From a virus (lineage: Duplodnaviria > Heunggongvirae > Uroviricota > Caudoviricetes), in the IMG/VR virus record IMGVR_UViG_2660238580_000002: DNA of 64,000 bases, one strand, 5' to 3'. Positions within the stretch are counted from its first letter, which is position 1. Every line of letters begins with the position of its first letter. Position numbers and translations under genes: made by a program. The notes below the pieces were generated by a model. It made no database searches. It was given only the letters and a program-made list of their open reading frames with translations, and was not told where the DNA came from. Positions 29,969-33,747 of this stretch are shown here, one piece after another.

Positions 29969-30244
29969 CTACACGAAAGCCTCAGAAAGCCATGCTAAGT
30001 GCTTCGGCTTGACATATCCCGGCGTAAATTCAGAGGTGGAGCCGCCACGGGAACGGATAACCTCACCGGAAACAATCGGCGAAACGTACAGCGCCATGTT
30101 TACCAGTCCCGGAATTTGTGAGAGATAGACTTTCTCCGTGGTGAAGGGATAGCTCTCACGGAAAAAGAGACACAGAAACAGCGGATCAAACTTAAATTTC
30201 TGCTCATTTGCCGCCAGCAGTTGGGCGGTTGTGTACATCGACAT
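29969..30244 (-). pseudogene. E: Major capsid protein E, 5' fragment (codons 1-82 fused to 9 satellite codons and a stop)
   Basis: MSMYTTAQLLAANEQKFKFDPLF...GYVKPKH then LAWLSEAFV*. Confidence 0.9.
30000..30009. repeat. Right junction direct repeat TGCTTCGGCT (att core within gene E)
   Basis: Identical to 17563-17572; E sequence resumes immediately after. Confidence 0.8.
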
Positions 30245-30299
30245 AAAAAAATCCCGTAAAAAAAGCCGCACAGGCGGCCTTTAGTGATGAAGGGTAAAG

Positions 30300-30632
30300 T
30301 TAAACGATGCTGATTGCCGTTCCGGCAAACGCGGTCCGTTTTTTCGTCTCGTCGCTGGCAGCCTCCGGCCAGAGCACATCCTCATAACGGAACGTGCCGG
30401 ACTTGTAGAACGTCAGCGTGGTGCTGGTCTGGTCAGCAGCAACCGCAAGAATGCCAACGGCAGCACCGTCGGTGGTGCCATCCCACGCAACCAGCTTACG
30501 GCTGGAGGTGTCCAGCATCAGCGGGGTCATTGCAGGCGCTTTCGCACTCAATCCGCCGGGCGCGGTTGCGGTATAAGCCGGGTCACTGTTGCCCAGCGGC
30601 TGGTAATGGGTAAAGGTTTCTTTGCTCGTCAT
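30300..30632 (-). CDS. D: Head decoration protein D
   Basis: [12 protein letters not shown]... 110 aa, lambda gpD. Confidence 0.95.
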
Positions 30633-30641
30633 AAACATCCC

Positions 30642-31961
30642 TTACACTGGTGTGTTCAGCAAATCGTTAACGGCATCAGATGCCGGGTTACCTGCAGCCA
30701 GCGGTGCCGGTGCCCCCTGCATCAGACGATCCAGCGCAGTGTCACTGCGCGCCTGTGCACTCTGTGGTGCTGCGGCCAGAATGCGGCGGGCCGTTTCCAC
30801 GGTCATACCGGGGGTTTCTGCCAGCACGCGTGCCTGTTCTTCGCGTCCGTGAGCCTCCTCACAGTTGAGGATCCCCATAATGCGGCTGTTTTCTGCCGCA
30901 ACCGCTGCGGTGATCTGCGCGTTCACGTCCGGCTGCGCCGCGCTGGCGTTTTCGCCCTCCGTCGCTGGCACCACGTCAGTAACGTCAGCCTGCGAAGCAG
31001 TGGCTGAAACAGTTGTTGATTGAGTCTCTTTGGTCATTCGCCCTCCTGAGAGACGGGATTTACGTGCATCCAGTGCATCACGCATGACGGTGATCGCATC
31101 GGTGCTGTTAACAAGTTCATCAGCCAGTCCGGCATCAATGGCCTCCTGACCGCTGTACACTGCAGCCTCGGTATCCAGCACAGCCTGCACGGACAGGCCG
31201 GTATATGCCGACACCTTCTGCGCAAACATCTGGCGGGTTGCGTCCATCCGGGACTGCAGTGTCTCCCGGACGTCATCCGGAAGATGGCTGTAGGGGTTGC
31301 CATCCACCTTATGGCTGCCGCTGTAAATCAGAGTGATTTCCACACCCTGTTTCTCCAGCGCAGCACCGTAATTACTGTGAGCCATCATGACGCCGATGGA
31401 GCCTGTCCGGGCGGTCTGCGTGACCAGACGCCGGGAGGCGGCACTGGCAAGCAGCTGACCTGCACTGCAGTTCATGTCGTTGGCCAGCGCCCATACCGGT
31501 TTTATGTCACGCACACGGGCGATGATGTCAGCGCAGTCAAATGCCCCCGCCACCATCCCTCCGGGCGTGTCCATATCGAGCAGAATGCCGTCCACCATCG
31601 GATCGCTGGCAGCCTGTTGCAGACGGGCGATAATGCCGTTGTAACCGGTCATCCCCGAATACGGCTGCAGCGCCCGCGTCCGGCTGACCAGCGTGCCGGA
31701 CACCGGCAGCACGGCGATGCCGTTCATGACCTGATAACTGCGGGCCTGTCGTGGTCCGTCATCATCAACGGATAACGCCAGCGCCGCGGGTGCCTCTCCG
31801 GCAGTCAGGCTGTCGCCGGACACCGCATCCGTCAGGCGGCTGATCCCAAGCTGGCCTGCAAGCGCACAAAAGAAAACCCGCGCATAGGCGGGTTCAAGCA
31901 TCAGCGGCTCATTAAAAGCCATGCTGGCAATATGCGGGAGATTACGCAGCTCTGCTGTCAC
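30642..31961 (-). CDS. C: Capsid assembly protease/scaffold C (Nu3 nested in frame), GTG start
   Basis: [22 protein letters not shown]...; first codon GTG where lambda has ATG (from memory). Confidence 0.85.
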   Translation of the reverse strand: MTAELRNLPHIASMAFNEPLMLEPAYARVFFCALAGQLGISRLTDAVSGDSLTAGEAPAALALSVDDDGPRQARSYQVMNGIAVLPVSGTLVSRTRALQPYSGMTGYNGIIARLQQAASDPMVDGILLDMDTPGGMVAGAFDCADIIARVRDIKPVWALANDMNCSAGQLLASAASRRLVTQTARTGSIGVMMAHSNYGAALEKQGVEITLIYSGSHKVDGNPYSHLPDDVRETLQSRMDATRQMFAQKVSAYTGLSVQAVLDTEAAVYSGQEAIDAGLADELVNSTDAITVMRDALDARKSRLSGGRMTKETQSTTVSATASQADVTDVVPATEGENASAAQPDVNAQITAAVAAENSRIMGILNCEEAHGREEQARVLAETPGMTVETARRILAAAPQSAQARSDTALDRLMQGAPAPLAAGNPASDAVNDLLNTPV

Positions 31962-33543
31962 TCTTCTCCTCCTCTGTTGATTGTCGCAGCCCGGATTCAA
32001 ATGCTGCAGCCGCCCAGGCGGGCGGTTTAAGACCGGCTGCGCGGCGCTCCATCGTTTCACGGACCTGCTGGGCAAAAATTTCCTGATAGTCGTCACCGCG
32101 TTTCGCGCACTCTTTCTCGTAGGTGCTCAGTCCGGCTTCTATCAGCATCACCGCTTCCTGAACTTCTTTCAGACCATCGATGGCCATACGACCGGAGCCT
32201 ATCCAGTCGCAGTTCCCCCAGGCACTGCGGGCTTCCTGAAAACTGAAGCGCGCTTTTGAAGGTAACGTCACCACGCGGCGAACGATGGCCTCTTCCAGCC
32301 AGCACAGAAACATCTGGCTCGCCTGACGGGATGCGACGAATTTTCGCCGCCCCATAAAGTACGCCCACGACTCGTTCGCACTGGCCCGTGCCGTGGAGTA
32401 GCTCATCTGGGCGTAATTCCGGGAAAGCTGCTCATACGAGACACCCAGCCCGGCAGCGATATACCGCAGCAGTGACTGCTCAAACACGGAGTAGCCGTTA
32501 TCCGTATCCTGAGCCGTCTGCAGGTTCAGTGAGTCACCCGGCATCAGGTGCGGTACTTTTGCGCCTCCCAGCCGGACCGGCGCTGCGGCGTAATACGCGG
32601 CAATTTCACCAATCCAGCCGGTCAGCCTTTCCCGCTGCTCCTGACTGTTCGCGCCCAGAATAAAATCCATCGCTGACTGCGTATCCAGCTCACTCTCAAT
32701 GGTGGCGGCATACATCGCCTTCACAATGGCGCTCTGCAGCTGCGTGTTCTGCAGCGTGTCGAGCATCTTCATCTGCTCCATCACGCTGTAAAACACATTT
32801 GCACCGCGAGTCTGCCCGTCCTCCACGGGTTCAAAAACGTGAATGAACGAGGCGCGCCCGCCGGGTAACTCACGGGGTATCCATGTCCATTTCTGCGGCA
32901 TCCAGCCAGGATACCCGTCCTCGCTGACGTAATATCCCAGCGCCGCACCGCTGTCATTAATCTGCACACCGGCACGGCAGTTCCGGCTGTCGCCGGTATT
33001 GTTCGGGTTGCTGATGCGCTTCGGGCTGACCATCCGGAACTGTGTCCGGAAAAGCCGCGACGAACTGGTATCCCAGGTGGCCTGAACGAACAGTTCACCG
33101 TTAAAGGCGTGCATGGCCACACCTTCCCGAATCATCATGGTAAACGTGCGTTTTCGCTCAACGTCAATGCAGCAGCAGTCATCCTCGGCAAACTCTTTCC
33201 ATGCCGCTTCAACCTCGCGGGAAAAGGCACGGGCTTCTTCCTCCCCGATGCCCAGATAGCGCCAGCTTGGGCGATGACTGAGCCGGAAAAAAGACCCGAC
33301 GATATGATCCTGATGCAGCTGGATGGCGTTGGCGGCATAGCCGTTATTGCGTACCAGATCGTCTGCGCGGGCATTGCCACGGGTAAAGTTGGGCAGCAGG
33401 GCTGCATCCACACTTTCACCCGGTGGGTTCCACGCCCGCAACTGCCCACCAAATCCGCTGCCACCGCCGTGATAACCGGCATATTCACGCAGCGATGTCA
33501 TGCCGTCCGGTCCCAGAAGGGTGGGAATGGTGGGCGTTTTCAT
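31942..33543 (-). CDS. B: Portal protein B
   Basis: 533-aa [20 protein letters not shown]..., lambda gpB. Confidence 0.95.
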
Positions 33544-33747
33544 ACATAAAATCCTGCAGGTCCCCTGCGTCGCTGTGTCATGCCGGTCTGCACCTCCAGC
33601 TCCGCAATGTATTTTTTCAGGTCAGACACGGAAGTGGCCGTAAACTCCACTCGCCGTCCGTCTTTCTGTACCGTTGCCACCCGTTTACCTGTCATCAGGT
33701 CATGCAGTGCCGCACGGGCAGCGGCAAGGTTCTTCCTGTCGCGTCAT
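33540..33747 (-). pseudogene. W: Head-tail connector W, frameshifted after codon 6
   Basis: ATG at 33747 reads MTRQEE then shifts frame (extra C relative to remembered lambda W) and stops; rest of W is in another frame with no ATG start. Confidence 0.65.

Follow-up and report, generated by a model that had tools for sequence, protein, structure and literature searches.

A probable recent frameshift in the head-tail joining gene W of a Qin-type lambdoid prophage that carries a helper-embedded satellite in its capsid gene

A class of helper-embedded phage-inducible chromosomal islands (PICIs) with the integration site E:Phage_cap_E:80 was described by Tommasini, Mageeney and Williams in 2023 (PMC10111431). 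Its founder, Eco567.11capE of E. coli NRG857c, occupies a lambda-like prophage, where a 10-bp identity block marks its position within the capsid gene. About 2 h after induction with mitomycin C the element leaves by precise excision, which restores the capsid gene, and 201 further elements are found at the same site (PMC10111431). The supplementary tables of that study give the core agccgaagca together with the attL flank, and its authors point to the many helpers that look truncated, with satellites that seem 'abandoned' (PMC10111431). Here we analyse a composite of this kind in a stretch of 64,000 nucleotides, IMG/VR virus record IMGVR_UViG_2660238580_000002, which we call the window. Its gene content and flanks identify it as a lambdoid prophage of the Qin type, full-length and located between rspB and ydfJ. 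A satellite splits its capsid gene E, and its gene W, which encodes the head-tail adaptor gpW, is interrupted by a frameshift that is very probably a genuine mutation.

Phage lambda that lacks gpW makes DNA-filled heads that are unable to bind gpFII or tails. In the virion, gpW forms a 12-mer adaptor ring that connects the portal to gpFII, and its domain map comprises helix 1 (residues 4-22), a hairpin (23-36), helix 2 (37-54) and a C-terminal arm (55-68) (PMC10721106; PDB 1HYW, 8K38). In the window, alignment with lambda and with the nearest complete genome, E. coli LST200A (NZ_CP110858.1, 2418310-2478347; 99.98% collinear over the aligned parts of the window), reveals one extra C in W after lambda nt 2650 (GAAGAAC[C]TTGCC, window 33729/33728). 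The change is from C to CC and does not lie in a long homopolymer; it is the sole indel in the head module and one of only two 1-bp indels that separate the window from LST200A over about 60 kb, the other being in gnsB. The uninterrupted 68-codon frame from ATG that a functional gpW needs is thus cut off after 15 codons, and three-frame translation places the rest of the gene in the +1 frame. When the extra C is removed, the product is 68 aa long and identical at all 68 positions to lambda gpW and to PDB 1HYW (gpW family, PF02831). The seven substitutions that distinguish the gene from lambda W are all synonymous, so W was probably under purifying selection until very recently. A first-pass annotation of this DNA, made from the letters only, had reported that W shifts frame, ends early and leaves no intact 68-codon open reading frame (ORF), and the comparison with the lambda nucleotide sequence bears this out, with the single extra C falling in codon 7. 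That annotation was also right to put the remainder of W in another frame, but not in describing it as devoid of an ATG: the Met18 codon (33695) lies 4 nt past the premature stop and opens a 51-aa ORF (Table 1).

We read W as a null allele that should block head-tail joining, and predict that without help this prophage copy yields no infectious particles. A product restarted at Met18 is probably non-functional, because most of helix 1 would be missing from the two-helix bundle on which the ring depends. The closest precedents are the amber and null mutants of lambda W. They affect the same gene, which here encodes an identical protein once the C is removed, and lambda genetics together with the structure (PMC10721106) lead one to expect tailless filled heads, a phenotype that is predicted for the window. 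The lambda ambers are laboratory mutations, whereas the allele described here, a +1 frameshift, arose naturally in a prophage on the chromosome. Induction could still lead to satellite excision, restoration of E and DNA packaging, but filled heads lacking gpW would be neither stabilised nor joined to gpFII and tails. Transmission of helper and satellite alike would then depend on gpW from another lambdoid phage. The proposal of the first-pass annotation that the prophage can neither form heads nor join tails alone therefore survives in its second half, where W is null, but not in its first, where E is probably restorable by excision.

The interruption of E is, by its attachment sequences and integrase, the published helper-embedded PICI arrangement and is in that sense already known. 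Homology to lambda runs as far as nt 6379 (E codon 82, window 30000) and is taken up again with codon 80 at window 17572, so that E is split, as had been noticed from the sequence, into parts that lie 12,437 bp apart and meet the satellite at two copies of the core AGCCGAAGCA. When the satellite is excised in silico at this 10-bp core, an open E frame of 341 aa is restored, with R25C and E334A as its sole differences from lambda gpE, and the rebuilt attB junction contains GTCAAGCCGAAGCATGAAGTG. The substituted sites are at window 30172 and about 16803, and R25C is common to LST200A. Four features that define the class were found: integration at about codon 80 of a lambda-E cognate; a 10-bp block agccgaagca at attL and attR, the same string being present with the attL flank in the supplement of PMC10111431; an integrase of the 11capE clade, with Arm-DNA-bind_3 and Phage_integrase Pfam domains, that matches Eco4802.11.E_Phage_cap_E_80 (CP019944.1; Supplementary File 1 of PMC10111431) at 409 of 411 positions (99.5%); and int, alpA and primase genes that are all on the minus strand, co-oriented with E and the late operon. 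The satellite also resembles other E:Phage_cap_E:80 elements in having its own E-family capsid gene and a cos-like segment that is common to helper and satellite. The junction between E and the integrase gene occurs in 172 of 5,426 complete E. coli genomes. Because this is a known embedded-PICI integration that is reversible in the founder, E is likely to be gated, not destroyed, provided that the satellite copy can excise; by analogy with 11capE, excision mediated by integrase and AlpA would undo the interruption on induction. The description of the head module as 'doubly inactivated' consequently fails for E.

There are differences too. The helper of the founder is at icd, whereas that of the window is at Qin (rspB-ydfJ), and no helper at ydfJ appears among the entries listed in the part of the PMC10111431 supplements that was available. 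In the window copy the Nu1-like and SSB genes of the satellite have internal stops, in common with LST200A and WP7-S17-ESBL-04, a strain-specific IS3-family insertion sequence (IS) element has entered the satellite, and the helper W is broken; in the Eco4802.11 member (CP019944.1), both SSB and the helper W are intact.

Assignment of the helper to the Qin type comes from synteny with annotated Qin genes and from the flanks. In LST200A the RefSeq annotation lists int, xis, dicB, dicA, dicC, relBE, hokD, ydfU, the Q-like gene ydfT, cspB/F/I, essD, rrrQ, gnsB and nohA; after these come a complete lambda-like head and tail module and then pinQ, and the flanks are rspB and ydfJ. The locus and the early, lysis and csp genes are those of Qin (Kim) of E. 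coli K-12, as judged through the LST200A annotation. The K-12 prophage is truncated after nohA, whereas that of the window retains the whole lambda-like head and tail module. The late genes follow the lambda map on the minus strand in the order cos, Nu1, A, W, B, C/Nu3, D, E, FI to J, lom, stf and tfa, and when window 29999-36300 is aligned with lambda nt 79-6379, identity is 98.7% and there are two 1-bp gaps.

If the extra C were an artefact of sequencing or assembly, W would be intact, and several observations would suit that explanation. The assembly from which the window comes is not one of the complete RefSeq genomes, and the allele is in no other complete genome: none of the 3,228 records that match among 5,426 complete E. 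coli genomes of RefSeq carries it (best match 600/601), and the 32-mer that spans the indel was not found in exact-pattern scans of genome, metagenome and viral contig collections. The corrected protein is lambda gpW itself, and the other 1-bp indel of the window sits in an A8 run, a classic context for error. The W site, by contrast, is C to CC and not a long homopolymer, and an exact-protein look-up of the 51-aa ORF found the extra C in contig JAASLN010000089.1 of GCA_016114915.1, a draft assembly that was deposited separately and is the only one with this allele among the loci read from that look-up. The contig (23,273 bp) maps by arithmetic to window 26497-49769; its identity with the window is 100% over 12,156 bp, a span that takes in the gnsB indel, and it ends 4-6 bp from the window's IS3-family and IS2 insertions. 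Because its ends fall at these insertions, the draft is probably the same clone, separately assembled. For comparison, 6.4 kb of a visibly noisy assembly contain 31 gap openings with 38 gapped bases, whereas the window and LST200A are separated by two indels in about 60 kb. With a second assembly in hand and so few indels, a real and recent null mutation is likelier than an error, and the homopolymer error that the first-pass annotation had offered as an alternative is unlikely. Ribosomal recoding, by a +1 frameshift or a hop that restores full-length gpW, has a parallel in the programmed frameshifting of lambda G-T, and the W frameshift is early in the gene. Inspection of the codons from codon 7 to the stop (GAA CCT TGC CGC TGC CCG TGC GGC ACT GCA TGA), however, reveals no slippery or shifty motif, and a programmed site would be conserved, whereas this allele is unique to one clone and missing from the 3,228 records and the three contig collections alike; we rejected recoding, whose probability we regard as negligible. 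The satellite does not rescue the helper either. It had been suggested that the prophage is maintained because the satellite supplies capsid functions, but the satellite encodes E-, D- and Nu1-like genes and no W, no second W homologue was found elsewhere in the window, and the satellite is itself damaged by the Nu1-like and SSB stops and the IS3-family insertion. Compensation for W by the satellite was rejected on these grounds.

The loss of W might instead have been selected and not neutral, either because it locks helper and satellite in the chromosome or because the 51-aa, N-terminally truncated gpW acts as a dominant-negative adaptor that spoils particle assembly by superinfecting lambdoid phages. 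Independent N-terminal lesions in the W genes of other prophages leave the identical 51-aa ORF: R3* (TGA) in E. coli 042 (FN554766), Q4* (TAG) in two assemblies, and several deletions that fuse A or upstream DNA to W at about codon 15. The product is encoded on 197 contigs, the restart ATG is close behind the premature stop, and defences that interfere with particle assembly are known in prophages and PICIs. These lesions were nevertheless collected through an exact search for the 51-aa ORF, so that lesions elsewhere in W go uncounted; 197 contigs are few beside the at least 1,000 for the intact protein; the lesions are heterogeneous and include contig-scale deletions; inspection 5' of Met18 reveals no Shine-Dalgarno sequence; and the lesion in the window accompanies plainly degenerative events. 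As a signal of selection the set is small and biased in its ascertainment, and we think it very unlikely that W inactivation was selected here; recurrent selection of N-terminal W lesions in resident lambdoid prophages, or a dominant-negative effect of the 51-aa product on head-tail joining, is just as improbable. If it were so, a dominant-negative product would turn a dead helper into a defence gene. Ordinary mutational decay is preferred because the W lesion arose with three IS insertions and the gnsB frameshift, and we hold with considerable confidence that, as a whole, the locus is best explained as a resident prophage that is decaying neutrally amid an IS burst, through very recent and clone-specific changes and not by design. 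The suggestion that the helper is defective or domesticated is thus upheld as far as decay goes (the three IS elements, W and gnsB), if not as a double inactivation. Some points weigh against this interpretation. The second assembly may share its isolate or read set with the window and so is not fully independent proof; the competence of the satellite copy to excise is a prediction from intact int and alpA genes, with an IS3-family element downstream; and the loss of function of the Met18 product is deduced from structure. Relatives of the prophage share its DicA-type repressor and the IS66 element in its early-late junction region, both of which bear on earlier inducibility.

The decay picture is built from differences with LST200A. 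Beyond the insertions and frameshifts, the clone differs from that genome by about ten scattered single-nucleotide polymorphisms (SNPs) and a recombination patch in J. Two of the three IS elements are copies of one IS3-family element, one in ydfD and one in the satellite, and the third is an IS2 that has inserted in the IS66 tnpA; the junction between the satellite and its IS3-family element is in no complete RefSeq E. coli genome. In gnsB (37472-37645, minus strand) one A has been lost from the A8 run at about 37548, with a frameshift as the result. The gnsB allele is also present in GCA_016114915.1, and the 44-aa ORF that it creates recurs in many unrelated assemblies. The case suggests that an embedded satellite shares the fate of its helper once a gene that the satellite lacks, here W, has been lost. 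As an 'abandoned' helper-satellite composite the locus is a small and clean case that matters little beyond annotation, where the split E is best recorded as a reversible gate formed by integration of a helper-embedded PICI, in place of a dead capsid gene, and W as a frameshifted pseudogene specific to the clone.

Table 1. Coordinates of the prophage, satellite and insertion features in the window
Feature	Position	Strand	Remarks
Nu1 (terminase small subunit)	35644..36189	minus	181 aa, intact; 98% identical to lambda Nu1 over 181 aa
A (terminase large subunit)	33744..35669	minus	641 aa, intact; no indel relative to lambda
W (head-tail adaptor gpW) pseudogene	33540..33747	minus	+1 frameshift at codon 7, from alignments to lambda and LST200A
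Residual W reading frame	33700..33747	minus	15 codons from ATG at 33747, then TGA (33700-33702)
51-aa ORF from W Met18	33540..33695	minus	lacks residues 1-17; ends at the native W stop
B (portal)	31942..33543	minus	533 aa, intact
C (protease/scaffold)	30642..31961	minus	439 aa; GTG start at 31961
Nu3, nested in C	start about 31247	minus	from lambda annotation
D (head decoration)	30300..30632	minus	110 aa, intact; 98% identical to lambda D
E 5' part, codons 1-82	30000..30244	minus	ends in attL core AGCCGAAGCA (30009-30000)
E 3' part, codons 80-341	16782..17572	minus	begins with attR core AGCCGAAGCA (17572-17563)
Helper-embedded PICI	17573..29999	minus	12.4 kb, including the 1.3-kb IS3-family insertion at 25183-26490; genes assigned by Pfam and by comparison with the LST200A annotation
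int (tyrosine integrase, arm-binding domain)	28601-29836	minus	Pfam
alpA	28369-28599	minus	Pfam
DUF2971 gene	27531-28361	minus	Pfam
Primase (D5-type)	22512-24263	minus	Pfam
E-like capsid gene	20262-21302	minus	42% identical to lambda gpE
D-like decoration gene	19911-20252	minus	
AlpA-like helix-turn-helix gene (second)	19516-19899	minus	
cos-like region and Nu1-like pseudogene	18719-19490	minus	
IS3-family insertion in satellite	25183-26490		second copy of the ydfD element; absent from LST200A
IS2 insertion inside IS66 tnpA	49774-51101		absent from LST200A
IS3-family insertion in ydfD	58352-59658		absent from LST200A

The remaining late genes are sound. Full-length ORFs confirm the earlier impression that Nu1, A, B and D are intact, and the same is true of the tail genes, which have no indel relative to LST200A, where RefSeq annotates all of them as intact. 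The stop of A (TGA) overlaps the W ATG in the tetranucleotide ATGA, and the native W stop overlaps the ATG of B. Gene C, an S49 protease/scaffold gene, is wild type and without lesion, and C/Nu3 is full length. Its GTG start had been taken as a departure from an ATG in lambda, but the annotated C start of lambda J02459 is itself a GTG at nt 4418, and the window agrees exactly with lambda nt 4396-4420 in the start codon and the 22 nt upstream of it, among them the GGAGGAG ribosome-binding region; C therefore has the native initiation region, and the start codon was rejected as a defect.

The satellite encodes two DUF2971 proteins and a SWIM protein in addition to its replication and capsid-like genes. 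Its Nu1-like gene, with 72% amino acid identity, has an in-frame stop at codon 23 in the DNA-binding domain and a possible restart at Met27, and the SSB gene has an internal stop; both are the stops that LST200A and WP7-S17-ESBL-04 share. A 528-bp copy (94%) of the helper cos-Nu1 region (35882-36409) lies 5' of the Nu1-like gene, the cos-like region and this gene together being at 18719-19490, and the CP019944.1 member has a TIR-domain gene in place of the Nu1-like gene. The clone-specific IS3-family element has entered the early operon of the satellite, upstream of the primase operon and at the 3' end of an icd-like gene.

The IS66-family element (ISEc23-like in LST200A) occupies window 51076-53462 and adjoins a methyltransferase ORF of 118 aa (53852-54208). 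This ORF matches positions 52-165 only of a 229-position PHROG profile and looks truncated at the IS66 junction; since LST200A has the same junction, it is older than the W lesion. In the tail-tip gene J, about 23 SNPs relative to LST200A are clustered at window 7342-7837 amid near-identical sequence, a pattern that resembles a short recombination patch.

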